From the NCBI GenBank assembly GCA_963664815.2, contig CAXXHB010000003.1:1408001-1472000 (forward strand): a DNA stretch of 64,000 nucleotides, read 5' to 3'. The stretch comes from Spirochaetota bacterium. GTDB lineage: Bacteria; Spirochaetota; UBA4802; UBA5550. The translations under genes were made by a program, and so were the position numbers. Positions 31,762-50,162 of this stretch are shown here, piece by piece; the stretch's first letter is position 1, and the number at the start of each line of letters is the position of its first letter. The notes beneath the pieces are model-generated. The model did no database searches. It was not told the origin of the DNA and worked only from the letters and a program-made list of their open reading frames with translations.

Positions 31762-31842
31762 ATGCGATCGCTATCAGGATTGCCTGAAAATTCAAATAAT
31801 AGACTGCTTATTAAGGCAGATGTCAGAGAGGTAAAAGTATGA
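31762..31842 (+). CDS. 26-aa upstream ORF coupled to amtB
   Basis: aaggagg RBS; MRSLSGLPENSNNRLLIKADVREVKV*; its TGA overlaps the amtB ATG (ATGA). Confidence 0.5.
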   Translation: MRSLSGLPENSNNRLLIKADVREVKV

Positions 31843-33434
31843 AAAAGAAACTGATAAGTTTCATAGCTGCATGTTTTATGTTATTCACTGCCGGGTTATC
31901 ATTTTCACAGGATGCTCCGGTAAAAACCGATACGATTATCAGAACAGTTGATCCCTCGGGAGGGAATACCGGAAATGCTGGTGATGTAACTGCTGCTACA
32001 AAGGGAAGTCCTACTCTTACAGAAGTAGCGGCTGAAGTAGGCCATACAAAAGTTGCATTAAATCTTGTCTGGACTCTTATCGCTGCATTTCTTGTAATGT
32101 TTATGCAGGCGGGATTCGCCATCGTTGAAAGCGGCCTGACAAGGGCAAAAAATGTGGCGCATACTATGTCGATGAACTTTATGATTTATCCGCTTGGAAT
32201 GCTCGGCTTTTATCTGTGCGGGTTTGCAATTATGTTCGGTGGTGTAGGCGCGCTTGGTACTCTCGGTGGTTATGACGGGTTATCATCCGAGTTTGTGATT
32301 CACCTTTTCGGGAAGGAATTCGGACTTTTCGGTACAAAGGGTTTTATGCTTACAGGTGTATATGATGTGGCTATTTTCGGGCTGTTTATTTTCCAGATGG
32401 TTTTTATGGATACTACAGCAACTATCCCTACGGGTTCAATGGCTGAGCGATGGAAATTTTCATCATTTTTCATATATGGAATTTTTGTAGGAACCATAAT
32501 ATATCCTATATATGGTAACTGGGTATGGGGAGGTGGATGGCTGGCATCACTTGGGAAGAATTTCGCACTTGGGCATGGACATGTCGACTTCGCCGGTTCA
32601 TCAGTTGTCCATATGACTGGTGGTGTACTTGCACTTGTCGGTGCAAAAATACTGGGACCCAGAATAGGGAAGTATAATGAAGACGGATCTCCCAATGCTA
32701 TACCTGGCCATAATATACCGCTGGCCATTTTGGGAACCTTTATCCTCGCATTCGGATGGTTCGGTTTTAATGCGGGCTCGACACTGGCAGGGACAGATCT
32801 TCGTATAAGTGTTGTTGCAGTAAATACAATGCTTGCTTCCGGTGCAGGTGCAATAGTATCAGCACTATGGATGTGGGGAGTAAGGGGGAATAAACCTGAT
32901 CCAAGTATGATGTGTAATGGTATGCTCGCAGGCCTTGTTGCAATTACTGCTCCATGTGCTTTTGTTGGTTCAGGTGCAGCGGTTATTATAGGGACAATAT
33001 CCGGTATACTGGTTATTGAAGCAGCATTTTTTGTTGAAAGAAAACTAAAAGTAGATGATCCTGTCGGCGCAGTTGCTGTCCATGGTGTTAATGGAGCATG
33101 GGGATGCCTTGCACTCGGAATTTTTGCTGATGGTTCTTATGGCGACGGATGGAACGGTGTTTCAGGAACAGTTAAAGGTCTGTTATATGGAGATACGTCA
33201 CAGTTTTTTGCCCAGTCCATAGGTGTAATAACTAATATAATTTATGTTGCGGTTATTGGTTATCTGGTATTCAAACTGGTAGACTTAACAATAGGTAACA
33301 GGGTACCGGCGTCTTATGAATTAGACGGGCTTGATATCCCGGAGATGGGAGTTATTGGATATTCAGGTGTTAAACTGGATAAATATTCAGAAACGCCAAT
33401 ATCGCGAAAAAGTTCAACTGCCGGTTTACTATAG
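31839..33434 (+). CDS. amtB: Ammonium transporter
   Basis: FMQAGFA.VESG, DFAGSSVVH, FGWFGFNAGS and DDPVGAVAVH motifs; N-terminal signal/extension. Confidence 0.97.
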   Translation: MKKKLISFIAACFMLFTAGLSFSQDAPVKTDTIIRTVDPSGGNTGNAGDVTAATKGSPTLTEVAAEVGHTKVALNLVWTLIAAFLVMFMQAGFAIVESGLTRAKNVAHTMSMNFMIYPLGMLGFYLCGFAIMFGGVGALGTLGGYDGLSSEFVIHLFGKEFGLFGTKGFMLTGVYDVAIFGLFIFQMVFMDTTATIPTGSMAERWKFSSFFIYGIFVGTIIYPIYGNWVWGGGWLASLGKNFALGHGHVDFAGSSVVHMTGGVLALVGAKILGPRIGKYNEDGSPNAIPGHNIPLAILGTFILAFGWFGFNAGSTLAGTDLRISVVAVNTMLASGAGAIVSALWMWGVRGNKPDPSMMCNGMLAGLVAITAPCAFVGSGAAVIIGTISGILVIEAAFFVERKLKVDDPVGAVAVHGVNGAWGCLALGIFADGSYGDGWNGVSGTVKGLLYGDTSQFFAQSIGVITNIIYVAVIGYLVFKLVDLTIGNRVPASYELDGLDIPEMGVIGYSGVKLDKYSETPISRKSSTAGLL

Positions 33435-33449: not shown

Positions 33450-33788
33450 ATGAAAAAAATTGAAGCAATTATAAGACCTGAAAAACTCGATGCAGTTCTT
33501 GATGAACTTGAAAATGTAGGTTATTCGGGATTGATGATCACCGAAATTAAGGGTCATGGAAAGCAAAAGGGAGTTGTGCAGCAGTGGCGTGGAGAAAGTT
33601 ATAAAGTAAAACTGATCTACAAGGTTAAAATTGAAATAATCGCAAAAGACAATGAAGTTGCGAATATAAAGGATACAATTATTAAAGCAGCAAAAACAGG
33701 TGAGATGGGAGACGGCAAGATTTTTATTTATTCAATTGAGGAAGCTGTTAAAATCAGGACAGGTGAAACAGGAGACAATACTCTCTGA
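33450..33788 (+). CDS. glnK: PII nitrogen regulatory protein
   Basis: MKKIEAIIRP, GHGKQKG, Tyr51 and TGEMGDGKIF motifs; linked to amtB. Confidence 0.93.
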   Translation: MKKIEAIIRPEKLDAVLDELENVGYSGLMITEIKGHGKQKGVVQQWRGESYKVKLIYKVKIEIIAKDNEVANIKDTIIKAAKTGEMGDGKIFIYSIEEAVKIRTGETGDNTL

Positions 33789-34021: not shown

Positions 34022-35554
34022 ATGGATCTGATAAACGACAGACAGAGTGGTTTGCTGGAAAAAATTGGAAGAATTTTTATCGAGGATAACGGCGATATTA
34101 AAATACTTATGTCCAATGTGTTTAAACTCATTGTAACCTATTACAATATTGAACGCGGAATGATAAGCATATATCACAAGGAGGAGGGTGAGATATGTGT
34201 TGATATATATCATGGATACACTGAGGAAGAGGTTGCAAGGGGGGTATACAGACCGGGAGAGGGAATAATCGGTACTGTTATTAAAACCGGAAATCCTTAT
34301 ATTGTAATGGATATAATGAATGAACCGAAGTTTCTTAACAGGACAGGTGCTGACAGAAATACAACAGCTAACAAGATTTCATTTATTTGTGTCCCTATTA
34401 AACTGAATTCAGCGGTTATTGGTACAATTTCTGTTGATATTATTAATAATTTCGGAAGAGATCTCGCCGAAGAATACCATGCCCTTACTACTGTATCTAT
34501 TATGATTGCACAGGCGGTTAACGGCAGAATTGAATCAGTTTTAAGAGAGAAAATGCTTAAAGATGAGAATGAACTTCTCCGTAAAAAAATATCGATCAAT
34601 AGTGTCCAGGGGAAACTGTTGGGAACCTCCAGTGAGATGAAAGAAGTATATGAAAAAATCATTATGGTATCGGGGACTGACACAACTGTGCTCATTACGG
34701 GTGAGAGCGGGACAGGGAAGGAGCTTATTGCTGATGCCATACAAAGAAATAGTAAGCGATACGGTGGTCCGTTTGTAAAAGTAAATGTTGCATCATTGCC
34801 GAAGAATCTTATTGAGACTGAACTTTTCGGTTATGAAAAGGGGGCATTTACAGGTGCTGATAAGATGAAAAAGGGGAGATTTGAGCTGGCCCATGGGGGG
34901 ACGATTTTCCTTGATGAGATAGGTGACCTGGATATTTCTTTACAGGTTCATCTTTTAAGGGTTTTACAGGAAAAAAGTATCGATAGAGTGGGGGGAAATG
35001 CGCCGGTTCCAGTTGACGTAAGGGTTATTGCCGCTACTAACCAGAACCTTGAAGAAAAGATTAAAAATAATGAGTTCAGGGAGGATCTCTATTACAGGCT
35101 CAATGTTTTTCCAATACAATCACCTAAATTGCGGGACAGAAGATCTGATATTGTTCTGCTGGCGGATCACTTTCTTGAAATTTATAATTCAAGAGCGGAA
35201 AAAAAGATAAGCAGGATAAGTACGGATACAATTGATCTTCTTGTCGCGTATCACTGGCCGGGGAACGTAAGAGAGCTGGAGAATTGTATCGAACGGGCAG
35301 TAATTCTATGCAATGAGGATGTTATAAGAAATTATCATCTTCCTCCATCTCTTCAGATATTTAACGATAAAAACGGATCAGGGACTCTTGAAGAGAGGAC
35401 TAACATGTTTGAAAAGGAACTTATTATTGATGCCTTAAAAGTATCAAATGGTAATGTTTCAAATGCATCGAAAAAACTCGGAACAACAAAAAGAATACTC
35501 GGTTATAAAATGGATAAGCTTGGAATTGACTATAAAATTTTCAGAAATCACTGA
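34022..35554 (+). CDS. NifA-like GAF-AAA+-Fis sigma54 activator
   Basis: GAF domain ([16 protein letters not shown]); [20 protein letters not shown] and WPGNVREL motifs; C-terminal HTH. Confidence 0.93.
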
Positions 35555-35977: not shown

Positions 35978-36424
35978 ATGAATATAACAGTCGTTAGGAC
36001 ATTGAAATTGTTTGTTATGTATTGTTCCTCCTCTTTCAGTTCTGAAGAATTGTCTGTCGCGATAAAGATGGATGAAGGTGATGAACTCAGACTGATCGGG
36101 CTTCCATGTTCAGGGAAGGTTGACCTTCTTTACCTTTTAAAAGCATTTGAGAAGGGGGCAGACGGTCTGGTAATACTCACATGCCCGAAAAATGAATGCC
36201 GTCATCTGGAGGGTAATCTCCGGGCGTTGCGAAGGGCTGACAGTGTAAGCTCAATACTCGATGAAACAGGGCTTGGTAATGACAGAATAACCGTATTACA
36301 GTTGAAAGAGGACGGAATTGACGGCATAGTGTCGGAGATTGCTGCGTTTGCAGGCAGCCTGAGGCCGTTAGCCTTTAAAAATTCCGGTTCGTCTGCAGTT
36401 GATGCAACAGCTGTTTCAAATTAG
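35978..36424 (+). CDS. Divergent MvhD/FlpD-like [2Fe-2S] protein
   Basis: LPCSGKVD...AFEKGADG...TCPKNECRHLEGN. Confidence 0.85.
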   Translation: MNITVVRTLKLFVMYCSSSFSSEELSVAIKMDEGDELRLIGLPCSGKVDLLYLLKAFEKGADGLVILTCPKNECRHLEGNLRALRRADSVSSILDETGLGNDRITVLQLKEDGIDGIVSEIAAFAGSLRPLAFKNSGSSAVDATAVSN

Positions 36425-36519: not shown

Positions 36520-37437
36520 ATGAAAAAAGAGAAAAATTTCGCGGATCAGATAAGGGACAAAGATTTTATTGTAACAGCAGAATACCTTCCGCGTGCTGAA
36601 ACAGATCCGGCGAATATTAAAACAATAATTGACTGCCTGAGAGAGGTACCATCAGCGGTAAACGTTTCGGATAACCCGTTTGGTGTGGCAATGTCAAGTT
36701 TTGCAGCATCAATTCACCTTATCAATGCAGGAATTGAACCTGTACTTCAGATCGTCACAAGAGACAGGAACAGGATTGCAATACAGTCTGATATTCTGGG
36801 AGCGTCATCTCTCGGGATAAGAAATATGCTTTGTCTTTCAGGGTATCATCAGGTGCTTACAGACAATCCTGAATCAGCAAATGTTTATGATATTGACTCA
36901 ACACAGCTCCTGGCAATTGTGGAGAATCTGAGGATGAAGGGAGAGCTTCTGAACGGCGCAAAGATAAATGGGCCGTTTAATATGACTACTGGCGCCGTTG
37001 CAAATCCTTTTATGACACCGGTTGAACTTAACGTGCTGAGAGTTTCACAAAAGGCTGAGGCCGGGGCGGTTTTTTTTCAGACCCATCCCGTTTTTGATGT
37101 TGAGAAATTCAGTTTATGGCTTACTGCAGTAAAAGAATCTGGTGTTGATGAAAAAACCGCGATACTTGCCGGTGTGCTCCCGCTTGAAAGCGTTGAAGAG
37201 GCTGAATCTTTAAGACTAAAATATACTGATTTCAATATACCTCAATCCGTTATCGATCGCCTGAAATCGGCGGGAAGCGCAGAAGCACAGAAAAAGGAAG
37301 GAATTGCAGTCTGCACGGAAATTATATCAAAGGTAAAAAATATGAGCGGCCTCAGAGGAATACATCTTCTTACGGGCGGCAAAGAAAAACTGATACCCGA
37401 GATTCTTGGAGTATCCGGTCTGTCCGGAAAAATATAG
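36520..37437 (+). CDS. metF: Methylenetetrahydrofolate reductase-like flavoprotein (MetFV type, divergent)
   Basis: VTAEYLP, AVNVSDNP, IEPVLQIVTRDRNRIAIQSDILGA and KAEAGA motifs. Confidence 0.88.
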   Translation: MKKEKNFADQIRDKDFIVTAEYLPRAETDPANIKTIIDCLREVPSAVNVSDNPFGVAMSSFAASIHLINAGIEPVLQIVTRDRNRIAIQSDILGASSLGIRNMLCLSGYHQVLTDNPESANVYDIDSTQLLAIVENLRMKGELLNGAKINGPFNMTTGAVANPFMTPVELNVLRVSQKAEAGAVFFQTHPVFDVEKFSLWLTAVKESGVDEKTAILAGVLPLESVEEAESLRLKYTDFNIPQSVIDRLKSAGSAEAQKKEGIAVCTEIISKVKNMSGLRGIHLLTGGKEKLIPEILGVSGLSGKI

Positions 37438-37457: not shown

Positions 37458-38864
37458 ATGCCGGAAAAATATCACATTGAAACAAATCCGGTCCCTCCGC
37501 GACGTCCGAGGACAGGTAAATACGGTATTATTGACTGGAGAGAAGATTGTGCAAGGTGCCATAATTGTGTAAAGAAAGCATGTGTTTATGACAGGCACAG
37601 GGATGAAATTAAATATATCAGAAATATGGATGATGTTGATGCACTTTTTTTTGACTGCATGGGATGCTTTTCCTGTGTGCAGGAGTGTACTAAAAACCTT
37701 TTAAGGCTTACCATAAACCCTGAGTATGAGAAACTAGGGAATGATTACTGGACTCCACAGATTATCCAGACTACATGGCTGCAGGCTGAAACTGCGAAGA
37801 TCCCTGTTTCGGGTGCAGGATATGGCGGAAGATTTTCCGGTTATGGTTTTGATTCCATGTGGACCGACATGTCAGAGATAGTAAGGCCAACGAGAGACGG
37901 GATTCACGGGCGTGAATATATAAGTACTTCTGCAGACATAGGCAGGAAAACATCATTTCTTGTGATGAAGGATGGAGAACTTTCAACGGATATCCCTCCA
38001 TTAATATCAACTCCAATGCCGCTGATAATTGATATGATGCCTGAAGAATATTCTCTGGAAATTCTGGAACCATTGATGATGGAAACTGCATATAGAACTG
38101 ATCTGACAGCTGTTATTGATTCAGGAAGATGGTCTTTTAAAAATAATTTCAGCGAGAAGTATCTCCCGCATGTAGCATTTTATTTCGCTGCCGGTTCGGA
38201 ACTCCTTCCTGCGGATATTATACGTAAAACAAAAATGGTGGAGATTGAAAATTCCGGCGATATTAAACGCCGGATAATGGAACTCAAAGAGATCAGTGCG
38301 GACATAGTAGTGTGTGTAAGGATTAAATTAGATGAAAACGGCATTAGCCGGGCAGTTGAACTTTCCGAGCAGGGTATTGAAGCACTGCATATTATAGCAG
38401 ATATGAACGGAAAACAGTATGGCACAGGTTCTCCGTTATTTATAAAAGATATGATACGTCAGATTCATAAATCGCTGATTGAAAGCGGCAGACGTGATGA
38501 TATTACAATAATTTCAGGTGGCGGAATAGCCCTTCCGGAACATATGGTTAAGGGAATTATATGCGGAACTGATCTTGTATCAATAGAACTTCCGCTTTTA
38601 ATTGCAATGGAATGCCATCTGTGTGGGGTTTGCACCGGAGAGAAAAAATGTCCCGCGAAAATCAGGGAAGTTGACATTGAGTATGGCGCTGGCCGGATGA
38701 CTAACCTGATTGCAGCGTGGCATGACCAGATGGTTGAACTTATGGGAGCCATGGGCATCAGAGATGCAAGACGTCTACGCGGTGATGTGGGGCGTGCCAT
38801 GTTTTTTGAACAGATGGAGGAGGAAAGCTTTGGGAGAATTTTTGGTAAACGGAAGCATGCTTGA
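37458..38864 (+). CDS. Degenerate glutamate synthase FMN-domain paralog with N-terminal ferredoxin
   Basis: CARCHNCVKKAC and CMGCFSCVQEC clusters; ISGGGIA...CHLCGVC...CP tail; MSxG and AQGAKPG motifs absent. Confidence 0.8.
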   Translation: MPEKYHIETNPVPPRRPRTGKYGIIDWREDCARCHNCVKKACVYDRHRDEIKYIRNMDDVDALFFDCMGCFSCVQECTKNLLRLTINPEYEKLGNDYWTPQIIQTTWLQAETAKIPVSGAGYGGRFSGYGFDSMWTDMSEIVRPTRDGIHGREYISTSADIGRKTSFLVMKDGELSTDIPPLISTPMPLIIDMMPEEYSLEILEPLMMETAYRTDLTAVIDSGRWSFKNNFSEKYLPHVAFYFAAGSELLPADIIRKTKMVEIENSGDIKRRIMELKEISADIVVCVRIKLDENGISRAVELSEQGIEALHIIADMNGKQYGTGSPLFIKDMIRQIHKSLIESGRRDDITIISGGGIALPEHMVKGIICGTDLVSIELPLLIAMECHLCGVCTGEKKCPAKIREVDIEYGAGRMTNLIAAWHDQMVELMGAMGIRDARRLRGDVGRAMFFEQMEEESFGRIFGKRKHA

Positions 38865-40419
38865 GAAAATAATTCCTGAAAACACGCTTAAAACCAGGAC
38901 TATACAGCATACAGAAGAGCGGGCAATAAATCCAGCTCCTCCAAGATACAGGAATGAGATGGGAAAATATATAACCCTGAGAGATGAAACAAAATGCATA
39001 TTATGCGGAAAATGTGCCGCTGTATGCCCGCAGGGAGTTCATGTATTGAAACCGGGGTACAAGTATTTTGCTGAGCCTAAAAATCACCTCTGTTTTGGTT
39101 TTAAGTGCGAAGAGAAGGGGTGTTACTGTGTTGCCGCCTGCCCGAACGGCGCATTGAAAGTCGAAGTAAATCCCATGATGAAAGTTCTGGGAGACTACAG
39201 GTGGACAGCAGAGATGATACTTGCTACATGGAAAATGGCTGAAAACGGTAAAATTCCATCTGATGATTATGGGTTGGAATATGAAACCGGAAATTCCGGT
39301 GGAGGTTTTGACCGGATAAGATTTAAATTTCCGGAAAAACCGCCGATAGCACTCAGTGCAGAAGATATTGATACTTCACTTGAACTGAACCGGAGAAATG
39401 ACGGCAGGCCAAAAATAAAAATTGATGTTCCGTGGTATGGCGGAGGTATGTCCTTTGGTTCTGTCAGCAACACTACGCAGCTTTCAAAAGCACGAGCGGC
39501 AGTTGCATGGAACACTTTTACCTGTACCGGTGAAGGCGGGTATATGGAGAGGATGAGGCCATACGATGACCATGTTATAACTCAGGTCGCAACGGGTTTA
39601 TTCGGAATCAGGGAAGAGACTATTCAAAGAGTTCCTATAGTGGAGTTTAAATATGCGCAGGGTGCCAAACCTGGACTCGGCGGTCACCTCCTGGGGGATA
39701 AAAACACCCCGGCAGTTGCTATGATGCGGGGAACGGTCGTAGGTATTCCACTTTTCTCTCCATTTCCGTTTCACAGCGTATATTCCATAGAAGATCACAT
39801 GAAACAGATTGACTGGATTAAGCATGTAAACAGGCGGGCGCTGATTTCAAGCAAGGTATCAACTCCTAATGATGTGGATATGGTTGCTGTAGGGAGTTAT
39901 TCTGCAGGCACCCATATTATACATCTTGACGGAGGGTACGGCGGAACAGGAGCAGCTCCGGAAATTGCCAAAAAGAATATAGCAATGCCGATAGAATATG
40001 CTATTCCGAAAGTTCATAATTTTCTTGTAGCGGAAGGAGCAAGGGAGGGAGTAACACTGATCGCAAGCGGAGGTATCCGTAATCCCTATGATATGGCCAA
40101 GGCAATTGCACTTGGAGCAGATGGAGTTGTTATAGGTACAATGGAGATGGTGGCGCTCGGGTGCGTAAGATGCGGAAGATGTTCCGCAGGCCGTGGTTGT
40201 CCAAGAAGCATAGCTACTACCGATAAAAAACTTGCACCCAAGATAGAACTCGAATGGGGAGCCCAGAGGCTTATTAATACTTACAATGCATGGAGAGACG
40301 AACTTATAAGAATTCTTCAGAGGCTTGGACTGGGAAGCGTAGCTGCCCTGAGGGGCAGATCAGATCTTCTCATGCATCTTGATTATACCAATGACGTGGA
40401 GTATAACCATGAAAAATGA
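38857..40419 (+). CDS. Glutamate synthase FMN/Fe-S subunit (archaeal-type GltB2) with ferredoxin
   Basis: CILCGKCAAVCP, GGMSFGS, TGEGG, QVATGLFG, EFKYAQGAKPGLGGHL, ASGGIR and CVRCGRC...CP motifs; start at ATG 38857. Confidence 0.93.
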   Translation: MLEKIIPENTLKTRTIQHTEERAINPAPPRYRNEMGKYITLRDETKCILCGKCAAVCPQGVHVLKPGYKYFAEPKNHLCFGFKCEEKGCYCVAACPNGALKVEVNPMMKVLGDYRWTAEMILATWKMAENGKIPSDDYGLEYETGNSGGGFDRIRFKFPEKPPIALSAEDIDTSLELNRRNDGRPKIKIDVPWYGGGMSFGSVSNTTQLSKARAAVAWNTFTCTGEGGYMERMRPYDDHVITQVATGLFGIREETIQRVPIVEFKYAQGAKPGLGGHLLGDKNTPAVAMMRGTVVGIPLFSPFPFHSVYSIEDHMKQIDWIKHVNRRALISSKVSTPNDVDMVAVGSYSAGTHIIHLDGGYGGTGAAPEIAKKNIAMPIEYAIPKVHNFLVAEGAREGVTLIASGGIRNPYDMAKAIALGADGVVIGTMEMVALGCVRCGRCSAGRGCPRSIATTDKKLAPKIELEWGAQRLINTYNAWRDELIRILQRLGLGSVAALRGRSDLLMHLDYTNDVEYNHEK

Positions 40420-43093
40420 CACGGTGGACAGATTAATCGAATCAAAGGGACGGCTGCTTGCAAATGTCGAATTCCCTTCTATTGTCAGAAAAGGTGAAGA
40501 AGAGGGTGGATGCGGTGTTGTAGGTTTCTGCTGCAGCGAACCCGTTGCAGGAAAACATATTTATGAACCTTCAAAGCAGATGCACAACCGGGGTAATGGC
40601 AAGGGTGGCGGTATTGCGGCTGTAGGTTTTATACCCGAACAGATGAATGTCAGCAGGGATATACTTGAAGACTGCTATATGCTGCATATAGCTTTTCTTG
40701 AAGATAATGTAAAGAGTGATGTCGAGAATGAGTTTATTAACCCGTATTTTAACGTGGCGGCTTCAGCCATGCTCGATAAGGTCGATGACTGGACAACAAT
40801 ACCGGGACTTGAAGTGAAACCTCCCGATGTCTGCAGATATTTTGTCCGCGTAAAAAATGATGTTCTTGCAGGGTTTATAGCTGAAAACAGGCTGGAAGGA
40901 ATAGACAGCAGGGAAGCAGAGGATGAGTTTCTGAACCAGAACAGTTTTAAACTGAATCAGGTATATTATGCGGCTCATGGTGATAAAAGGGCGTTTGTGC
41001 TCTCTCATGGGCGGAATATAATGATTCTTAAGGTTGTAGGTTTTGCCGAGGCGATTGTTGATTATTATAAGATAAGAGAGCTTAAGGCTCATACATGGAT
41101 TGCACATCAGCGCTTCCCTACCAAGGGACGGGTATGGCATCCTGCAGGAGCGCATCCATTCACGGGAATAAATATGGCTCTTGTACACAACGGAGACTTC
41201 GCGAATTATCATTCAGTAACAGAGCACCTTCTTCAGAGAAACATATATCCGCAGTTTCTGACTGACACTGAGGTTTCGGCCCTGTTGTTTGATCTGATGA
41301 ACAGGACATATCATTATTCACTGGAACATATTATTGAAGCGATGGCCCCTACCTCTGAGCTTGACTTTGACAGGCTGCCTGAGAATAAAAAGAAATTATA
41401 CAGGGCAATACAGGCAACGCATATACACGGTTCGCCCGATGGTCCGTGGTTCTTCATTATTACGAGAAATGTCCCTGAAAAGAAACAGTTTCAGCTTCTT
41501 GGGATTACTGATACTGCTATGCTTCGTCCGCAGGTTTTTGCATTCTGTGACGGTGAGGTTCAGGTTGGACTGATAGCTTCAGAAAAACAGGCAATCGATG
41601 CAACTCTTGTAAGTCTGTCGAAAGATGATCCCAGGATCTGTCCTGTTGCAGAAAAGTACTGGAATGCACGCGGTGGAAGCCATACAGACGGTGGCGCTTT
41701 TATTTTTAATATTTCTGAAGTATCTGGTAAGATGAGAATTGAATGCACAGATAAATTTGGTAAACCGGTTTCACTTCCCGGGAACGGGGAGGTATGTGAT
41801 TTTATATCTGAAAAATATCTTTCACATAAGCTGAAAGACGATGTCGTGAATTATATCAGGCAGTATAACGATAATAATCCTTACGGGCTTTACAGTTATA
41901 TCCGTGATAATATACCTTTTTGGTCATATGATGATATCCGCGCGGCTCTGAGGATGATTACAGATATGGCTTCAGATAATTCAGGTATTGAGAGAGCTGT
42001 ATCGGTATTAACTTTATTAAATGATCTTAAATATCCGGTCGGAAAAAAGAAAAGAAGCAACTTAATACATCTTATAAGAATGGAACTTACGAAGATGTTT
42101 AAAAAACTGCCATATCTTGATGATAAGACTGTATCAGACGGGAACAGTTACAGGCTTATTGATCTTGATAAAAGAGATACGCTTCGCGGTCCTGAGCAGA
42201 ACGAATCTGTTCTTGTAATTAATGCATATAACTTTCCTCCTGAAGGCGTACTGAGCGATGCATCGCTGCTTATGGATGCGTATATGAAAGGATGGAAAAA
42301 GTTCATTTCATTCGGATGTACGGGACAGAGATATATAGGGAATGGTCTGGGCCCGGATACCGATGATGTGGTAATAGACGTTTATGACAGCTGCGGCGAT
42401 TATCTTGCTTCTGGAATTGACGGCCTTACAATAAAGGTTCATAATAATGCGCAGGATCAGCTGGGGCAGATAATAAAGAGAGGAAAGCTTGTAATCTACG
42501 GCGATGTAGGACAGACTTTTCTCTACGGCGCGAAGGGCGGAGACATTTACGTGATGGGTAACGCAGCAGGGCGTCCGCTGATAAATTCTGTCGGGAGGCC
42601 AAGAGTAATAATTAATGGCACATGCCTCGACTTTCTGGGTGAATCATTTATGGCTGGAGACCCTCATAAAGAAGGTGGGTTTGTCGTGCTGAATGGTACA
42701 AAGTTTGATGATGAAGGGAAGGTGCAGCTGCTCGATGAACCTTATCCCGGAAGTAATATTTTTTCTCTTGCAACAGGTGGAGCTGTATATGTCCGGGATC
42801 CGCATAAAACGCTTGTTGATCAGCAGCTTAACGGTGGTGTAATTGAATCGATAAATAAAAAAGACTGGGAACTTATTCTTCCATATCTCGAGGAGAATCA
42901 GCGTCTTTTCAATATCAGGTTAGACGAATTATTAACTGTTAACGGTGCTGTTAAAAACCCGTTAAAAGTTTATAGAAAAGTTATCCCCGCATCGGCAGCA
43001 AAGCGAGCGGATACCGATACAGATGATCTTTTTGATGATGAATTTACCGAAGAGGAAATATTTTTTAAAAAGGAGCCGGTGACTATCAGCTGA
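40409..43093 (+). CDS. Glutamate synthase GATase (GltB1) plus GXGXG (GltB3) fusion
   Basis: EEEGG-CGVVG Ntn cysteine, MHNRGNG, AHQRFPT, HPF, HNGDFANY and TDTE motifs; C-terminal GDVGQTFLYGAKGG / GNAAGR / GESFMAG beta-helix; start at ATG 40409. Confidence 0.92.
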   Translation: MKNDTVDRLIESKGRLLANVEFPSIVRKGEEEGGCGVVGFCCSEPVAGKHIYEPSKQMHNRGNGKGGGIAAVGFIPEQMNVSRDILEDCYMLHIAFLEDNVKSDVENEFINPYFNVAASAMLDKVDDWTTIPGLEVKPPDVCRYFVRVKNDVLAGFIAENRLEGIDSREAEDEFLNQNSFKLNQVYYAAHGDKRAFVLSHGRNIMILKVVGFAEAIVDYYKIRELKAHTWIAHQRFPTKGRVWHPAGAHPFTGINMALVHNGDFANYHSVTEHLLQRNIYPQFLTDTEVSALLFDLMNRTYHYSLEHIIEAMAPTSELDFDRLPENKKKLYRAIQATHIHGSPDGPWFFIITRNVPEKKQFQLLGITDTAMLRPQVFAFCDGEVQVGLIASEKQAIDATLVSLSKDDPRICPVAEKYWNARGGSHTDGGAFIFNISEVSGKMRIECTDKFGKPVSLPGNGEVCDFISEKYLSHKLKDDVVNYIRQYNDNNPYGLYSYIRDNIPFWSYDDIRAALRMITDMASDNSGIERAVSVLTLLNDLKYPVGKKKRSNLIHLIRMELTKMFKKLPYLDDKTVSDGNSYRLIDLDKRDTLRGPEQNESVLVINAYNFPPEGVLSDASLLMDAYMKGWKKFISFGCTGQRYIGNGLGPDTDDVVIDVYDSCGDYLASGIDGLTIKVHNNAQDQLGQIIKRGKLVIYGDVGQTFLYGAKGGDIYVMGNAAGRPLINSVGRPRVIINGTCLDFLGESFMAGDPHKEGGFVVLNGTKFDDEGKVQLLDEPYPGSNIFSLATGGAVYVRDPHKTLVDQQLNGGVIESINKKDWELILPYLEENQRLFNIRLDELLTVNGAVKNPLKVYRKVIPASAAKRADTDTDDLFDDEFTEEEIFFKKEPVTIS

Positions 43094-43118: not shown

Positions 43119-43682
43119 ATGACAATAATTATAAAGAGTGAAAATAAAGGGAAGAGTTTTTTCGAAAAGATAAAGACCGGGTCGGGTGTGGACATCAGTC
43201 TTTGCCTCCAGTGCAGGAGATGTTCAAATGGCTGTCCTGCAGCTGCTTTTACAGGAGCATCCCCTTCGGAAATAATAAGAAAGCTTCAGCTTGGTATGAG
43301 TAAGGAAATTCTTGATGATGATTTTATATGGGTCTGCGCTTCATGCGAAACCTGTTTTGCAAGATGCCCGATGAAGATCAATATGGCGGCAGTGATCGAT
43401 GAACTTAGAATTTCCGCCGGTGATTTAAAGTCAAAGACCCCGGCGGGGAATATGCCTATGATGAACAGGTTTCTTCTCGGTACTATGAGATCATTCGGAA
43501 GAACATATGATCTCGGAGCCATGATTCTTTACAAGGCCGGGACTTTCTCGTATTTCAGGGATGCGGGAAAATTTCCTATGATCCTTAAAAAGGGTAAAAT
43601 AGCGCTTTTTCCTTCATCAGCTGGTGATAAAAAAAGTGTAAAGAATATATTTAAAAATATTGAAAAGATGAGGAAACAGTAA
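43119..43682 (+). CDS. hdrC: Heterodisulfide reductase subunit C
   Basis: CLQCRRCSNGCP and IWVCASCETCFARCP motifs. Confidence 0.92.
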   Translation: MTIIIKSENKGKSFFEKIKTGSGVDISLCLQCRRCSNGCPAAAFTGASPSEIIRKLQLGMSKEILDDDFIWVCASCETCFARCPMKINMAAVIDELRISAGDLKSKTPAGNMPMMNRFLLGTMRSFGRTYDLGAMILYKAGTFSYFRDAGKFPMILKKGKIALFPSSAGDKKSVKNIFKNIEKMRKQ

Positions 43683-43683: not shown

Positions 43684-44556
43684 ATGAAATACGCGTACTA
43701 TCCGGGATGTTCTGCCGAATCGACGGCACGCGATCAGTATACATCAACAATGGCTGTTGCGCGCTCTCTGGGGATTGAGCTTGTTGAACCGGAGGGATGG
43801 ACTTGTTGCGGTTCAACGCCTGCCCACCAGGTAAATCACGATCTGGCTGTTTCATTATCAGTGGCAAATCTGCAGAAGGTGCAGGATCTTGGACTCGATA
43901 TGGTGGTAAGCTGCGCATCATGTTACAGCAGGATGAAAGCTGCAAATCATGCAGTTGCTTCAGATCCGGCAGTAAGAAAACGGATTTCAGAGATTACCGG
44001 AAAAGACTATGACGGATCTGTCCGTGTGAGGCATTTTATTGAAATATTACTTGAAGACATCGGTTTGATGCAGTTTAAAAGAATGCTTACAGGCTCTCTT
44101 GACGGAATGAAGGTTGCTTCATATTATGGATGCCTGCTTGTGCGTCCCAATGAGATAACGGGTTTTGACGATCCGGAAAATCCGGTTTATATGGATAAGA
44201 TTATAAATGCCATGGGTGGAGATAGCATTGACTGGCCGCATAAAACAGAGTGCTGTGGCGCGTCACTTACCCTTACAAGACCCGGGATAGTTTTAAAACT
44301 GTCTGATTCAATTATTGCAATGGCGGAGGGATACGGGGCGGAATGCATTTCTGTTGCATGCCCGATGTGCCAGATAAACCTTGATATGAGACAGGGAGAT
44401 ATAAAAAAAGAAACAGGAAAAGACTACAGGATGCCTGTAATGTATATAACACAGCTTATCGGGCTATGTCTTGGAATTCCGGGGAATGACCTTGGAATCG
44501 GCAGGCTGATAAATTCGCCCGAAAAGATTATGACAGGAGTAGTTAATAATGCATAA
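43684..44556 (+). CDS. hdrB: Heterodisulfide reductase subunit B
   Basis: YYPGC, TCCG, CASC, YYGC, ECCG and CPMC (two CCG domains). Confidence 0.95.
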   Translation: MKYAYYPGCSAESTARDQYTSTMAVARSLGIELVEPEGWTCCGSTPAHQVNHDLAVSLSVANLQKVQDLGLDMVVSCASCYSRMKAANHAVASDPAVRKRISEITGKDYDGSVRVRHFIEILLEDIGLMQFKRMLTGSLDGMKVASYYGCLLVRPNEITGFDDPENPVYMDKIINAMGGDSIDWPHKTECCGASLTLTRPGIVLKLSDSIIAMAEGYGAECISVACPMCQINLDMRQGDIKKETGKDYRMPVMYITQLIGLCLGIPGNDLGIGRLINSPEKIMTGVVNNA

Positions 44557-47500
44557 GAGTAATAATAAAAAAACCGGAGCGGTAATTGTTCAGGGGGGCG
44601 GTATTGCAGGAGTGCAGGCATCTCTTGATCTTGCGAACTCGGGATTTAAAGTACATCTGGTTGAAAGCAGTTCAGCGATTGGCGGAATGATGGCTCATCT
44701 TGACAAAACATTCCCTACCGGTGATTGCGCAACATGTATTGTTTCTCCAAAACTGGTTGAATGTTCAAGAAACCTTAACATAGAAATACATACACTCTCC
44801 GAGCTTGAATCTCTTGAAGGGGAGGCTGGAAACTTCAAGGCAGGGATAAGAAAATCACCAAGGTATATAGACGAAAAAATCTGCAATGACTGCGGTGATT
44901 GCACAAAGGCCTGCCCCGTTGAAATCAGCGACAGGTTTAACCGGGGTCTCGGGAAAAGAAAGGCAATTCAGAAATATAACGCGCAGGCTATACCTAACAA
45001 ACCGGCAATAATGAAGCTGGGACACGCGCCGTGTAAGGTTACATGTCCTGCAAATATAAATGTTCAGGGTTATATTCAGCTTATAAAAAAGGGTGAATAT
45101 ATAAAAGCGGTGAATATGATAAGGGAAAGAAATCCCCTGTCAGCTGTATGCGGGCGTGTCTGTCCTGCGCCATGCGAGAATGCATGCACAAGATCAAAAT
45201 TTGATTCCGCTGTTGCAATAAGGCAGCTCAAGCGTTTTGCCTCTGATCAGGAGATGATGCTGGTGAAATCAGGAAAAATACAGCTTCCTGAAGAGAGAAG
45301 ACCCTCATCAAATGCGGAAAAAGTTGCTGTTATAGGTGCAGGTCCGGCAGGGCTCACATGTGCTGCCGATCTTGCAGACAGGGGGTTTGCTGTTACGGTT
45401 TTTGAAACAGGAGAGCGTGCAGGCGGGATGCTTATATGGGGCATTCCCGAATACCGGCTCCCCAGGAATATCCTTGATTATGAAGTTGAACTTATAAGGC
45501 GGAAAGGTGTTGAATTTGTTTTCAACTATCGTGCAGGAAGGGATGCGTCGATCAGTGAATTGAAAAGTAAATATGACGCTCTCTTTATAAGCGCCGGTGC
45601 GCATGGAGGGAGACGTTTAGGAGTAGAAGGTGAAGACCTTACAGGAGTTGATTCAGGAGTTGATTTTTTAAGAGAGAACGGCAAAGAAGGGGGCAGACCC
45701 CATGTAGGCGAAAATGTTGTAGTAATAGGGGGCGGTAACGTAGCGGTGGATGTAGCCCGTACGGCACTCCGTCTGGGCGCAAAAAATGTACAACTTGTTG
45801 CTCTTGAAAAATATGGGGAGATGCCGGCATATGAGGATGAAATAAAGGCTTCTGTTGAAGAAGGTATTGTCATAAAAAATGGATGGGGACCGGAGAAAAT
45901 TACAGGTAAAGGATCGGTTTCCGGTATTGAACTTAAAGAATGCGTCAGGGTCTTTGATGATAAAGGGAAATTCAGCCCGATATATAATAATGAAAATCTG
46001 ATAACATTAAAAGCTGACCAGATTATAGTTGCCATAGGGCAGATGGTTGAAAAGGATCTTCTTGAAAACAGCTGTGTAGATACGGAATTCGGATGCATAT
46101 CAGCTGACCCGGTTACACTTGAAACTACAGAAAAGGGCGTTTTTGCAGGCGGAGACAATGTATCCGGGCCTGCAAGTGTCATCGAAGCCGTTGCTGCAGG
46201 AAAAAGGGCTGCTGAATCTATAGAAAGGTTTTTAAACGGAAAAGATATGTTTACTGACCGTTTCGAATCAACGGTTAAACCGGTTCCGGAAAATATGCTT
46301 CCTTCTGCATCTGATGTAATTAAAAAAGAACGCTCTGTGGCAGATGAACTTCCGGTAAGTGAGAGAATACTGAATTTCAAGGAAGTGGAATCGGCATTTA
46401 CAGCTGAGCAGGCTGCGGCAGAGGCGGAGAGATGCCTTAACTGTGCCCTCTGTTCGGAGTGCAATGAATGTGTTTCCGCCTGTGAAAAACAGGCTGTACG
46501 GCACAATATGAAGGATGAGTACATTGAGCTTGATGCGGGATCGGTAATAATGACTGCCGGTTTTAAGGAGTTCGACGCATCAGAGAAAGGTGAGTTCGGA
46601 TATGGCAGATATAAAAATGTCGTTACGAATGTTCAGTTTGAAAGAATGCTCTCTGCGGCAGGACCATCCGGAGGGCATGTACTGAGACTTTCCGATGGGG
46701 AAGAGGCAAAGCGCATCGCCTTTATACAGTGTGTCGGTTCAAGGGATTCCAAATGCGGCAACGAATACTGCTCATCAATATGCTGCATGGCAACAACCAA
46801 GCAGGCGCTTGTTGCAGATGAACATATAGAAGGGATGAATGCGTCTATATTCTATATGGATATACGTGCTTTTGGAAAGGACTTCGACCGTTATTATGAA
46901 AGGGCAAGAAGTAAAGAAAATATAAAGTATATAAAAGGGATCCCTTCACGTACAGTGCAGGTTCCCGGATCTATGGATATACGTCTTAAATATATGGATG
47001 AGAATTTCAATTATATTGAAAGTGATTTTGACCTTGTGGTGCTTGCGGTTGGGATGGAGCCTCAGGATAAAATTGAAGAAAAGATGTCCGGAATAGGAGT
47101 TAAGCTAAACGAGTATGGATTCGCAGGGAGAAGCCGTCTCTATCCTCTTCAGACATCACGCGACGGGGTCTTCATCGCAGGGGCATTTAATGAACCGAAA
47201 GATATCCCGGAGACTGTTACGCAGGCAAGTGCGGCTGCGTCAATGGCTATGGAGATACTTAACCAGGCAAGGAATACACTCACGGCAGGAAAGAAGTACC
47301 CGGCAGAACATGATACTACGGATGAAAAACCGAGAATCGGTGTTTTTGTATGTCACTGCGGGATCAATATAGCTTCAACAGTTGATGTGGAAAAAGTGAC
47401 GGAAGCAGTAGCGGGTGAACCGGGTGTAATAGTGGCATCTCATACAATGTATACATGTTCCGATTCCAGCTTAACAAATATTAAAAAATGTATTATAGAA

Positions 47501-49036
47501 AACAGGCTCAACAGGGTTGTTGTGGCCTCATGTACACCAAGAACGCATGAAGACCTTTTCAGGGATACTCTCCGTGAGGCCGGACTTAACCAGTACCTTT
47601 TTGAACTGGCCAATATACGGGACCAATGTTCATGGGTTCACAGCGGAGAACCTGAACCGGCAACTGAAAAGGCTGTTCAGCTTGTAAAGATGTCAATAGC
47701 ACGTTCGAGAATGCTGAAACCACTGACAGGCGAATCATTACTGATAAACCAGAACGGACTTGTAATAGGGGGTGGACTGAGCGGGATGACTGCAGCTCTG
47801 TCGCTTGCGGAGCAGGGATTTAAAGTTACGCTTGTTGAGAAGTCAGAGGTACTGGGGGGAAATATGCTGAATATTTACAGTACTCTTGAGAATGAAGATA
47901 TAGGCGGTTTTCTGGGTGAAATGGTTTCAAAAGTTGGAAATCATAAAAACATTCAGCTTTACCTGAACAGCGAGGTGGTTAAATTAAATGGCCATATCGG
48001 AAAATTTACTGTTACCATAAGTCAGAAGGGAGTAACTAACGGTAAAGGTATTGATATCAACTGCGGTGCGATTGTTGTCGCCACTGGGGGTAAACCTGCA
48101 GAAGTAAAGGATTTCTCTTATGGAAAATCAGAGAATATATTAACACAGCTAGATCTGGAGAAAATGATTCATGAAAACAGTTTTTCATCTTTAAATTCTT
48201 CTGGCAGCAGCAAAAATATTGTAATGATTCAATGTGCGGGCTCACGCAACAATGAAAGGGAATACTGCAGCAGGATATGCTGCTCCATGGCAGTGAAAAA
48301 TGCTCTGAAAATAAAAAAAGGGAATCCTGATGTGAATGTTTATATTTTGTATCGTGATATAAGGACATATGGCTTCAGGGAAAAATATTATCTTGAGGCA
48401 AGGAAGTCGGGTGTAGTTTTTATAAGGTATGATGAAAAGAATCCTCCGGTAGTGTCGGAAGATGAAAAACTTTTTGTAACGCTTAAAAGCCCCGATATTC
48501 GCGATGTCGTTATGATTGAAGCTGATAATCTGATACTGAGTACCGGGATAGATGCACATGCTGAGAACAGGGCGGTTTCTGACATGCTTAAGCTTCAACT
48601 CAACCAGGATGGTTTTTTTCTTGAGGCACACGTTAAACTGCGACCTGTAGACTTTGCGACAGAGGGGATATATCTCTGCGGTCTTGCTCATTCACCGAAA
48701 ATGATTGATGAGAACATATCGCAGGCAAAGGCAGCAGCATCACGCGCTGCGACTATTCTTTCAAAGAACAGCCTTGAAGTTGGTGCACAGGTGTCGGAGG
48801 TAGACCAGAATAAATGTATATCTTGTATGACCTGTGTTCATGCATGCCCGTATGGAGCTCCGTCGGCAAATATTGACGGTAAGGCTGAAATAGCCGCAGC
48901 AAAATGCATGGGTTGCGGCATATGTGCATCGGAATGTCCCGCAAGGGCTATACAGCTTAACCATTTTGAGACAAAACAGTTCAACATTATGCTAGAGGAT
49001 CTGATAGAAAACTATATAGCAGTACATCGTAATTAA
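44549..49036 (+). CDS. hdrA: Large HdrA (HdrL-type): HdrA with inserted GltD-like NAD(P)H domain plus a second HdrA module
   Basis: GGGIAG...LDKTFPTGDCATC; insert APCKVTCP...CGRVCPAPCE...GAGPAG...GGGNVA; IQCVGSRD..YCSSICC; second module RIGVFVCHCG...NIRDQCSWVH...QCAGSR..YCSRICC; C-terminal ferredoxin. Confidence 0.93.
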   Translation: MHKSNNKKTGAVIVQGGGIAGVQASLDLANSGFKVHLVESSSAIGGMMAHLDKTFPTGDCATCIVSPKLVECSRNLNIEIHTLSELESLEGEAGNFKAGIRKSPRYIDEKICNDCGDCTKACPVEISDRFNRGLGKRKAIQKYNAQAIPNKPAIMKLGHAPCKVTCPANINVQGYIQLIKKGEYIKAVNMIRERNPLSAVCGRVCPAPCENACTRSKFDSAVAIRQLKRFASDQEMMLVKSGKIQLPEERRPSSNAEKVAVIGAGPAGLTCAADLADRGFAVTVFETGERAGGMLIWGIPEYRLPRNILDYEVELIRRKGVEFVFNYRAGRDASISELKSKYDALFISAGAHGGRRLGVEGEDLTGVDSGVDFLRENGKEGGRPHVGENVVVIGGGNVAVDVARTALRLGAKNVQLVALEKYGEMPAYEDEIKASVEEGIVIKNGWGPEKITGKGSVSGIELKECVRVFDDKGKFSPIYNNENLITLKADQIIVAIGQMVEKDLLENSCVDTEFGCISADPVTLETTEKGVFAGGDNVSGPASVIEAVAAGKRAAESIERFLNGKDMFTDRFESTVKPVPENMLPSASDVIKKERSVADELPVSERILNFKEVESAFTAEQAAAEAERCLNCALCSECNECVSACEKQAVRHNMKDEYIELDAGSVIMTAGFKEFDASEKGEFGYGRYKNVVTNVQFERMLSAAGPSGGHVLRLSDGEEAKRIAFIQCVGSRDSKCGNEYCSSICCMATTKQALVADEHIEGMNASIFYMDIRAFGKDFDRYYERARSKENIKYIKGIPSRTVQVPGSMDIRLKYMDENFNYIESDFDLVVLAVGMEPQDKIEEKMSGIGVKLNEYGFAGRSRLYPLQTSRDGVFIAGAFNEPKDIPETVTQASAAASMAMEILNQARNTLTAGKKYPAEHDTTDEKPRIGVFVCHCGINIASTVDVEKVTEAVAGEPGVIVASHTMYTCSDSSLTNIKKCIIENRLNRVVVASCTPRTHEDLFRDTLREAGLNQYLFELANIRDQCSWVHSGEPEPATEKAVQLVKMSIARSRMLKPLTGESLLINQNGLVIGGGLSGMTAALSLAEQGFKVTLVEKSEVLGGNMLNIYSTLENEDIGGFLGEMVSKVGNHKNIQLYLNSEVVKLNGHIGKFTVTISQKGVTNGKGIDINCGAIVVATGGKPAEVKDFSYGKSENILTQLDLEKMIHENSFSSLNSSGSSKNIVMIQCAGSRNNEREYCSRICCSMAVKNALKIKKGNPDVNVYILYRDIRTYGFREKYYLEARKSGVVFIRYDEKNPPVVSEDEKLFVTLKSPDIRDVVMIEADNLILSTGIDAHAENRAVSDMLKLQLNQDGFFLEAHVKLRPVDFATEGIYLCGLAHSPKMIDENISQAKAAASRAATILSKNSLEVGAQVSEVDQNKCISCMTCVHACPYGAPSANIDGKAEIAAAKCMGCGICASECPARAIQLNHFETKQFNIMLEDLIENYIAVHRN

Positions 49037-49050: not shown

Positions 49051-49500
49051 ATGAGTGATAAAAATTTTGAACCTCTGATTATCGCTTTCTGCTGCCAGTA
49101 CTGTTCGTATTCAGCGGCAGACCTTGCGGGTTCCATGAGGCTTCAGTATCCGCCTAATGTAAGAATTGTACGAACTCCCTGTACCGGCAGGCTTGAAGTT
49201 AATTTTTTTATGAAGGCGTTTGAAAAAGGTGCTGATGGAATACTTGTAGCCGGGTGCCTTGAAGGAGGCTGCCATTTTACTGAGGGTAATTTTCTTGCGA
49301 AAGGCAGAGTGGGATATACCCGGACAATACTTCATGAAAGCGGACTTGAAGCTGAACGTATAAAAATGATAAATGTATCGGCGGCAATGGCACGGCCGTT
49401 TGTAGACCATCTGAACGATTTGATTGAAACAGTAAAAAAACTCGGGCCTAATCCTCTTTCGGGTAAGGTCAACAGTGTTAAAGAGGAGATAGAAGTATGA
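49051..49500 (+). CDS. mvhD: MvhD [2Fe-2S] subunit
   Basis: AFCCQYCSYSAADLAG, PCTGR and GADGILVAGC..GGCHF motifs. Confidence 0.95.
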   Translation: MSDKNFEPLIIAFCCQYCSYSAADLAGSMRLQYPPNVRIVRTPCTGRLEVNFFMKAFEKGADGILVAGCLEGGCHFTEGNFLAKGRVGYTRTILHESGLEAERIKMINVSAAMARPFVDHLNDLIETVKKLGPNPLSGKVNSVKEEIEV

Positions 49501-50162
49501 TAGTAGCGCAGAGAAAAAGTATTCCCGAACTCACAGAGATACTTGAGGGGCATAAAAAAATACTTGTACTGGGATGCGGTACATGCGTCACGGTTTGCCT
49601 TGCCGGTGGAGAACGTGAAGTGAGTATTATCTCTTCGGCTCTTAGAATTTCTTCCAGTCTGAAAGGGCTCGGTTTCGAGGTAGAGGAGCTTACAATAGAG
49701 AGACAGTGTGACAATATTTTTATAGAGAAGGCAGCGGAAGCGGTTTCCAGAAATGACGTTGTTCTGTCACTGGGATGCGGCGCGGGCGTACAGGCAATAG
49801 CGGAAAGGTTTGATAAGCCTGTATATGCCGGACTTGACACCGAATTTATCGGAATACTCGAGGAGAGGGCAACCTGGACTGAAAAATGTATATCATGCGG
49901 GAAATGCGTTCTGCATATGTATGGAGGAATATGCCCTGTCACAAGATGTGCAAAGCATATGTTGAACGGGCCCTGCAGCGGTTCCAGGGAAGACAGGTGC
50001 GAGGTGAGACCAGACCGCCCATGTGCATGGCAACTTATTTATCAGAGACTTAAAAAAATTGGTGAACTTGATAAACTTAAACAGATAAAAGCGCCAAAAA
50101 ACTGGAATTACAGCCTTCATGGCGGTTCCAGGGTTATTATTCGCGAGGATCACAGAATATAA
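49497..50162 (+). CDS. metV: MTHFR small Fe-S subunit
   Basis: GCGTCVTVC, CGAGVQ, CISCGKCVL..YGGICPVTRCAK.MLNGPC and CAWQLIY motifs. Confidence 0.93.
   Translation: MIVAQRKSIPELTEILEGHKKILVLGCGTCVTVCLAGGEREVSIISSALRISSSLKGLGFEVEELTIERQCDNIFIEKAAEAVSRNDVVLSLGCGAGVQAIAERFDKPVYAGLDTEFIGILEERATWTEKCISCGKCVLHMYGGICPVTRCAKHMLNGPCSGSREDRCEVRPDRPCAWQLIYQRLKKIGELDKLKQIKAPKNWNYSLHGGSRVIIREDHRI

Follow-up and report, generated by a model that had tools for sequence, protein, structure and literature searches.

An open reading frame (ORF) at positions 36520-37437 of a 64,000-nucleotide stretch of a Spirochaetota bacterium genome (assembly GCA_963664815.2, contig CAXXHB010000003.1; this whole stretch is referred to as the window) encodes P0001, a homolog of the methylenetetrahydrofolate reductase (MTHFR) MetF. 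The gene takes second place in a compact row of ten, others of which encode glutamate synthase and Hdr-type subunits. The frame is free of stops and yields 305 residues, which match PF02219 with 105.6 bits against a cut-off of 24 and cover profile positions 3-284 of 287. P0001 scores far under all NCBIfam MTHFR equivalog cut-offs (TIGR00676, 50.1 vs 293.7; TIGR00677, 51.2 vs 310; PRK09432, 18.8 vs 382; PRK08645, 169 vs 453). An AlphaFold2 (AF2) model calculated from a 111-sequence alignment gave a confident MTHFR (beta/alpha)8 barrel, with a mean predicted local distance difference test score (pLDDT) of 95.3 and a predicted template modelling score (pTM) of 0.92, and Foldseek matched it to solved Thermus, E. 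coli and human MTHFR structures with template modelling (TM) scores of 0.72-0.78 at 16-18% identity (query TM of 0.77 for 7th5_B, 0.75 for 1zp4_B and 0.78 for 6fcx_A). The gene and its three diagnostic codons are as follows.

36520..37437, + strand: MetF-like MTHFR-fold gene (P0001), by PF02219 (105.6 bits), AF2 and Foldseek
36580..36582, + strand: codon GAA of Glu21, within TAEYL, equivalent to E. coli Glu28 and retained, by codon reading and profile alignment
36844..36846, + strand: codon TAT of Tyr109, where the E. coli enzyme has Asp120, by codon reading, phmmer, MAFFT and profile
37084..37086, + strand: codon CAT of His189, at the position of E. coli Gln183, by codon reading, phmmer and MAFFT

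A preliminary description of the gene had aligned it by eye and placed Tyr and His at the positions of E. coli Asp120 and Gln183, an assignment that phmmer, a profile, MAFFT and the codons all uphold. The triplets GGG TAT CAT at 36841-36849 read G108-Y109-H110, and CAG ACC CAT at 37078-37086 read Q187-T188-H189. In phmmer comparisons with PDB chains, the 'CLSGY' of P0001 falls on 'ALRGD' of yeast Met12 and its 'FFQTH' on 'AITQ' of the E. coli enzyme, the Q being residue 183. MAFFT pairs LSGDHQ with LSGYHQ and FIQTQ with FFQTH, free of gaps around both sites and with invariant flanks (RDRNR, SG-HQ, GA-F-QT). The N-terminal Glu was likewise correctly said to be kept: in a 17-sequence profile, position 21 falls on the Glu of human 'slEffPP', and position 109 falls on the 'LRGD' Asp. 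P0001 is a real MTHFR-fold protein that retains the general-acid Glu and in which both the Asp and the Gln of the folate site have been replaced.

According to the available extract of PMC11094777, Asp120 of E. coli MTHFR holds the pterin by a bidentate bond to its N3 and exocyclic NH2, and the D120N mutant is left with 0.3% of kcat and a more than 40-fold higher Km. Gln183 bonds NH8 and N1 of the pterin, with Km raised more than 250-fold in Q183A and Q183E, and Glu28Gln brings activity down to about 0.01%.

An operon of glutamate synthase and Hdr-type genes

The ten genes span 35978-50162 in the order mvhD1-metF*-gltB'-gltB(FMN)-GATase/GXGXG-hdrC-hdrB-hdrL(gltD-hdrA)-mvhD2-metV, where metF* denotes the MetF-like gene, FMN is flavin mononucleotide and GATase is glutamine amidotransferase. 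Intergenic gaps range from -8 to 95 bp when likely internal starts are used; the ORF of the GltB-FMN subunit opens at 38710, with the likely start Met placed at 38857, and that of the amidotransferase/GXGXG subunit opens at 40379, with a likely start at 40409. The genes accompanying metF*, and three that precede the operon, are listed below (Ntn, N-terminal nucleophile; FAD, flavin adenine dinucleotide).

31839..33434, + strand: amtB, ammonium transporter (PF00909, 363 bits)
33450..33788, + strand: glnB/PII nitrogen regulator (PF00543, 96 bits)
34022..35554, + strand: enhancer-binding protein with GAF, sigma-54 activator (AAA+) and HTH_8 domains (PF00158, 237.7 bits; GAF; HTH_8)
35978..36424, + strand: MvhD1 (FlpD family), directly upstream of the MetF-like gene (PF02662, 81.8 bits)
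37458..38864, + strand: GltB', a 2x[4Fe-4S] ferredoxin domain and a GltS-type TIM barrel (PF01645, 50.4 bits; Fer4)
38857..40419, + strand: GltB FMN-domain subunit with an N-terminal ferredoxin domain (PF01645, 288 bits; Fer4 families)
40409..43093, + strand: Ntn-amidotransferase and GXGXG subunit, 904 residues (GXGXG, PF01493, 52 bits; GATase_6, 28 bits)
43119..43682, + strand: HdrC-like (Fer4_17 and others; TIGR03290, 67.9 bits, below cut-off)
43684..44556, + strand: HdrB-like, with two CCG domains (PF02754, 82.8 bits; TIGR03288, 178.6 bits, below cut-off)
44549..49036, + strand: HdrL-type fusion of 1495 residues, a GltD-like part (Fer4_20 and Pyr_redox_2) joined to HdrA-like FAD and ferredoxin domains
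49051..49500, + strand: MvhD2 (FlpD; PF02662, 157 bits)
49497..50162, + strand: MetV homolog, last gene of the operon (PF12225, 121.8 bits)

The cluster at 35978-50162 thus holds the complete gene set of a type IV MTHFR (hdrC, hdrB, hdrA, mvhD, metV and metF). The preliminary description had spoken of a MetF/MetV pair, which has to be corrected: the gene directly upstream of metF* (35978-36424) encodes MvhD/FlpD, and MetV lies 12 kb downstream (49497-50162) in the same operon. We also observed that MvhD1 has 'MYCSSSF' and is without the N-terminal 'FCCQYC' Cys motif of MvhD2, and the two copies may therefore differ in cluster binding.

All operon-level hallmarks of glutamate synthase are present by sequence, namely the Ntn Cys, the FMN domain, GXGXG and a GltD-like NAD(P)H module in HdrL. 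In the amidotransferase, a propeptide-like leader precedes 'GGCGVVGF' at Cys45, and 'GGCGV[VTI]GF' is kept in all 36 homologous high-scoring segment pairs that reach it. The motif is reminiscent of the mature N-terminus of bacterial GltB. A 43-sequence alignment of GltB' shows eight invariant ferredoxin Cys residues (C31/34/37/42 and C67/70/73/77) and a further invariant Cys group (C369/386/389/392/398), and its AF2 model resembles FMN-type barrels, GltS included, in Foldseek comparisons. GltB' is no decayed copy.

Upstream of the operon, a homolog of the sigma-54 activator is also found in seven related loci (L004, L012, L019, L021, L030, L038 and L039). A sigma-54-like motif, TGGCACGCAATATGC (one mismatch), lies ahead of amtB at 31713-31727; the window contains 31 such motifs vs 42.6 expected, which is not above chance. 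No convincing -24/-12 element was seen by eye in 35555-35977.

Several other features of the window were recorded. A Cys-rich ORF of 147 residues with a lipoprotein-like leader (50480-50923, +) directly follows metV; it has no Pfam match and gave no tblastn match across 14 extended loci. Just downstream of the operon lies a 705-residue caspase-domain (Peptidase_C14) protein (51592-53709, -). Two ankyrin-repeat proteins (54729-55250, +; 10123-11334, -), one of them with tetratricopeptide repeats, are encoded in the window, as is a 723-residue protein (61167-63338, +) with the unusual pairing of a phosphotransferase system EIIC membrane domain (102 bits) and a C-terminal EAL c-di-GMP phosphodiesterase (212 bits). 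A YbbR-domain gene is clustered with folP (Pterin_bind, 288.7 bits) and cdaA (DAC, c-di-AMP synthase) at 16441-19034 (+), and the window further holds an acetate kinase (13357-14610) and a KatG-type peroxidase (1718-3934).

Distribution of the triad among operon types

The two substitutions are beyond chance. Among the 120 closest database proteins (63-100% identity to P0001), a regular-expression count gave SGYH in 113 and QTH in 109; six Asp-position matches in this count fell elsewhere in the protein. We distinguish two types of locus in what follows: class B, the Hdr-linked ten-gene operon type, and class A, with the order mvhD-metV-metF-gltB'-gltB-GATase/GXGXG and no hdr genes nearby. The residues at the positions of Glu28, Asp120 and Gln183 are given as a triad, E-D-Q being the canonical one.

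Contigs representing one genome per species were scanned first, and two such scans yielded 88 loci. Those with at least 51% identity to P0001 (37 loci, which together with the window make up the Tyr lineage) never have Asp at position 109, which is Y in 31, F in 3, H in 2 and T in 1; the counts for position 189 are H 17, Q 17, S 2 and C 1. The 36 of these proteins that were aligned give Y 30, F 3, H 2, T 1 and D 0, i.e., an aromatic Y/F/H in 35/36; Glu21 is present in 36/36, and H110, Q111, Q187 and T188 are invariant. For position 189 the same alignment gives H 16, Q 17, S 2 and C 1, and the Gln to His change, which arose within sub-lineages, is not a defining one. An mvhD gene lies directly upstream of metF* in 37/37 loci, and gltB', gltB, GATase, hdrC, hdrB and hdrL follow downstream wherever the contig is long enough. 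In three permuted loci (L016, L024, L040) the order is metV-mvhD1-metF*. By record titles, the lineage occurs in Spirochaetota/Leptospirales, Syntrophales and other Desulfobacterota, Dehalococcoidia, Planctomycetota, Bacteroidales, Ignavibacteriae, Verrucomicrobiota and FCPU426.

The 51 loci with 40-45% identity are all E-D-Q and have metV directly upstream, most in the Moorella-like order hdrCBA-mvhD-metV-metF; ten of them then carry the same glt trio and make up class A loci. A scan of the sister group added 13 further class A loci, all E-D-Q, together with eight more class B operons whose triads, read from MAFFT alignments, are EEG, EDQ, EDD, AAD, ADD, AMD, AAD and ATD. A scan for a third lineage gave 64 loci, 61 of them with gltB' directly downstream. 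Asp stands at position 109 in 0/60 of the readable glt-linked loci, and with the truncated locus L286 added the 61 non-Asp residues are T 46, S 10, A 3, K 1 and N 1. This lineage was found in Planctomycetota, Fibrobacterota, Gemmatimonadota, Omnitrophota, Nitrospirota, Kiritimatiellota, Geobacter and others.

Over the three lineages, class B has Asp in 3/106 readable loci and the full E-D-Q in 1/106, whereas class A has E-D-Q in 23/23 (L049, L053, L058, L059, L075, L078, L083, L086, L087, L091, L153, L170, L171, L173, L175, L177, L180, L182, L183, L185, L194, L195 and L206). Co-segregation of the substitutions with glt linkage as such is contradicted by these 23 glt-linked loci; the loss tracks the Hdr-linked arrangement. 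Several class A loci have glnB/PII or amtB close by. Another 94 MetV-adjacent or other rows, one locus having been fetched twice, are E-D-Q apart from L198 (EDN). Among the remaining tree tips, E-D-Q is found in 95/97, the exceptions being a class B fragment and L198, and 118 of the 120 MetF tips outside class B keep both Asp and Gln.

L198, from a Chloroflexia metagenome-assembled genome (MAG; match 10001-10843), falls inside the class B clade with E-D-N and no glt genes, in the order metF-hdrC-hdrB-hdrL-mvhD2-metV, an arrangement that is possibly ancestral or secondarily reduced. Among 14 extended loci, one from each of 14 carrier genomes, the full ten-gene order ending in mvhD2-metV was found in 13. 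The exception, L217 (G002:C1:845000-862000, a Dehalococcoidia MAG), ends after mvhD1-metF*-gltB' and a partial gltB-FMN match, and may be a truncated or rearranged copy.

Trees were calculated with IQ-TREE -fast with approximate likelihood ratio test (aLRT) supports. In a tree of 164 tips (LG+G4), the Tyr lineage and its sister form a clade (aLRT 98.2), and class A is monophyletic (aLRT 64.6) and not sister to that clade. After addition of the third lineage, supports were 99.6 for this lineage, 100 for Tyr plus sister and 96.6 for the E-D-Q MetV-adjacent group including class A.

No MetF-GltB' fusion was present among 16 longer relatives, whose fusions were MetV-MetF, MetF-CdhD, a MetV-MetF-MetH type and one FlpD-MetF. 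The last, P0245, a metagenome protein of 481 residues, joins an N-terminal FlpD/MvhD to a MetF-like domain with the triad E-T-Q and belongs to the Thr lineage of class B. Its existence hints at direct contact between MvhD and MetF.

The genome of the window (5.2 Mb, 96% complete) encodes three MTHFR homologs. The separate canonical metF that the preliminary description had suggested looking for was found, and the two other copies are both E-D-Q: a canonical MetF of 296 residues (322.9 bits; FEFFPP, LRGD, CTQ) and a metV-metF pair (148 bits; LSGDHQ, QTQ). The genome also has a canonical large GltB (1526-residue ORF) and a glutamate dehydrogenase, so that housekeeping MTHFR activity and basic glutamate synthesis are independent of the operon. 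A separate E-D-Q MTHFR is likewise present in all 15 other carrier genomes examined, i.e., 16/16 with the window's own. The genome of L024 (G010), a MAG locus that carries the label Desulfosudis oleivorans, has an unusual expansion of eight MTHFR-family matches, with E-D-Q (four copies), E-H-Q, E-E-P, E-D-T and others. Orthologs at 62% identity or more occur in 7 of the 31 genomes of the window's order, four of the seven being within the eight genomes of its genus, so that the operon is accessory and patchy. No ortholog was found in G021, a one-contig, 97% complete genome of the same genus.

The proposed role of the MetF-like protein

Judging from these comparisons, we think it fairly probable that P0001 is a folate-dead, probably flavin-bearing adaptor subunit of a ten-gene, Hdr-driven glutamate synthase complex and carries out no methylene-tetrahydrofolate (methylene-THF) reduction. 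Loss of this reaction fits the observation that the triad decays variously in class B and is invariant elsewhere. It had already been suggested in the preliminary description, and the suggestion survives in part: the replacement of Asp and Gln, and a decay specific to the Hdr-linked operon type, speak for it, while the MetF/MetV pairing with which it was stated does not hold. The nitrogen context, with amtB, glnB and a sigma-54 activator upstream, counts in favour of the complex proposed here.

In this proposal, the substrate-reducing site would have moved from MetF to the FMN site of GltB, and the MetF barrel would have been kept as an adaptor between the iron-sulfur clusters of MvhD1/MetV and the ferredoxin domain of GltB'. 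The barrel would probably still hold a flavin. The MTHFR Asp is described as positioned above N1-C2=O of the flavin isoalloxazine (PMC3156243, in extract), and an aromatic Tyr, Phe or His would stand there, where the pterin would otherwise bind. Packing of such a side chain over the flavin would fit the replacement of Asp by an aromatic residue in nearly all proteins of the Tyr lineage. Formation of a complex, retention of the flavin, the direction in which electrons flow and glutamate synthesis as the final reaction are all steps that we infer, and the flavin relay of the preliminary description is of the same kind.

It is tempting to go further and speculate, tentatively and at rather less than even chances, that the operon encodes an electron-bifurcating glutamate synthase. 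A review notes for flavin-based bifurcation that electrons of the high-potential branch pass by way of Fe-S clusters to a terminal flavin (PMC8097209, in extract). The operon would then be a Moorella-type MetFV-HdrABC-MvhD machine in which the high-potential acceptor site has moved from MetF (methylene-THF) to the split GltB (2-iminoglutarate), and MetF would remain as a folate-dead adaptor, either flavin-bearing or a scaffold. NAD(P)H would be oxidised at GltD-HdrA and its electrons split between the strongly exergonic glutamate synthase reaction and a low-potential acceptor, e.g., ferredoxin. Class A would be a related but distinct machine, with folate chemistry and glutamate synthesis on one electron path.

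Four points weigh against the adaptor proposal. First, Glu21 and Tyr109 are strongly conserved in the Tyr lineage, so the site could be re-tooled rather than dead. Second, class A joins the same glt trio to a MetF with an intact triad, and MetF chemistry may for this reason have a real connection with the glt proteins. Third, the canonical GltB and glutamate dehydrogenase elsewhere in the genome make the operon dispensable for basic glutamate synthesis. Finally, monophyly of all class B lineages was not recovered: with a canonical-MetF outgroup they form a grade and not a clade, and we therefore claim neither a single nor an independent origin of class B.

Among the other explanations, the one that survives best, unlikely as we take it to be, is a cofactor-less structural relic, a barrel without flavin whose sole part is to keep neighbouring subunits together. 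Mean identity over 13 genomes is 59% for the MetF-like protein, one of the less conserved subunits, compared with 75.5% for GltB-FMN and 81%, the highest, for MetV; the catalytic residues decay in many ways; and a catalytically dead molybdopterin subunit in archaeal Hdr complexes provides a precedent (PMC12054007, in extract). On the other hand, P0001 retains the consensus residue at 26/26 nearly invariant columns of the 111-sequence family alignment, including RDRNR, SG-HQ and GA-F-QT, and Asp has mostly given way to aromatic residues in the Tyr lineage, a pattern compatible with their packing against a ring system. Neither observation is proof.

We regard as quite improbable that the barrel acts as an enzyme on a new substrate, with Tyr109, His189 and Glu21 forming a re-tooled site, e.g., for another pterin or a hydride donor feeding the complex. 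The residue conservation in the Tyr lineage (Glu21 and the four invariant positions throughout, Tyr in 30/36) would be expected of such an enzyme, and an identity of 51-74% across phyla indicates clear purifying selection. Yet in other class B lineages position 109 is occupied by Thr, Ser, Ala, Lys, Asn, Met or Glu, and in some of them Ala stands in for the Glu and Asp, Gly, Pro or Glu for the Gln. Position 189 varies even inside the Tyr lineage. If the operon has one job, a Tyr/His/Glu site is not needed for it, since the other class B lineages differ there.

That P0001 is still an MTHFR which tolerates Tyr and His at the pterin site is very hard to maintain: the Pfam assignment, the database names of its relatives and the catalytic Glu are in line with it, but the E. 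coli enzyme all but loses the folate half-reaction through a change as conservative as D120N (PMC11094777, in extract), Asp and Gln are kept in nearly all MetF tips outside class B, every carrier genome examined has another E-D-Q copy, and the TIGR00676 score is far from its cut-off.

The comparison also bears on annotation. Class B genes are annotated as 'methylenetetrahydrofolate reductase (NADPH)', which it shows to be almost certainly wrong for the whole class; in MAG reconstructions they would count as genes of the Wood-Ljungdahl or methionine pathway in Planctomycetota, Verrucomicrobiota, Bacteroidota, Chloroflexota, Desulfobacterota, Spirochaetota and others. As a candidate for a new mode of electron input into glutamate synthase, the operon is both concrete and widespread. 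If the bifurcating scheme were true, nitrogen assimilation would be a means of energy conservation for anaerobes in at least a dozen phyla. In the literature, with subscription journals and supplements outside the scope of the search, we found HdrA-GltD fusions and MetFV-Hdr complexes and no paper on the operon or on a degenerate MetF in a glutamate synthase cluster.

Relation to known systems

P0001 shares the (beta/alpha)8 fold and the catalytic Glu with type I MTHFRs (E. coli, Thermus thermophilus and human; FAD, NAD(P)H), from which it differs by its low identity, its scores below the equivalog cut-offs and the absence of equivalents of Asp120 and Gln183. It belongs to the same sequence family as the MetFV-type enzymes (type II of Clostridium ljungdahlii and type IV of Moorella thermoacetica), and the nearest relatives of its lineage are the MetV-adjacent MetF proteins at 40-45% identity. 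In type II, MetF binds FMN and MetV binds two [4Fe-4S] clusters (PMC8760232, in extract). The operon described here corresponds to the type IV gene set MetFV-HdrCBA-MvhD of Moorella with glt genes added. Unlike the MetFV-type systems, it has the pterin-site Asp and Gln replaced, a MetV that is not adjacent, an HdrA with a GltD-like part, three glutamate synthase genes after metF and a second MvhD before it. It thereby offers a natural experiment on the partner reaction of type IV MetFV-Hdr complexes, a question since the description of the Moorella complex (PMC8760232, in extract).

Compared with bacterial NADPH-GltBD and the split archaeal-type synthases, the operon supplies all GltB domains (an Ntn amidotransferase with propeptide and CGV-GF, a second barrel, the FMN barrel and GXGXG) and a GltD-like NAD(P)H module. 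In contrast to these, the GltB domains are distributed over three proteins, of which two have ferredoxin domains; GltD forms a fusion with HdrA; HdrBC, two MvhD, MetV and the MetF-like protein come in addition; and an ordinary GltB is encoded elsewhere in the same genome.

The 1495-residue protein combines the same domain types as HdrL, the HdrA/GltD fusion of Desulfobacterium autotrophicum (PMC2702500), and is likewise comparable to the archaeal 'type III HdrA', which has a GltD domain inserted into it (PMC12054007); the available extracts of these two accounts make no link to a GltB-type synthase or a degenerate MetF. The non-catalytic molybdopterin subunit of archaeal type II HdrA complexes (PMC12054007, in extract) is unrelated to the MetF-like protein in fold and cofactor. 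The analogy is one of principle, in that an enzyme-derived protein has lost its catalytic residues and has been kept in an Hdr complex.

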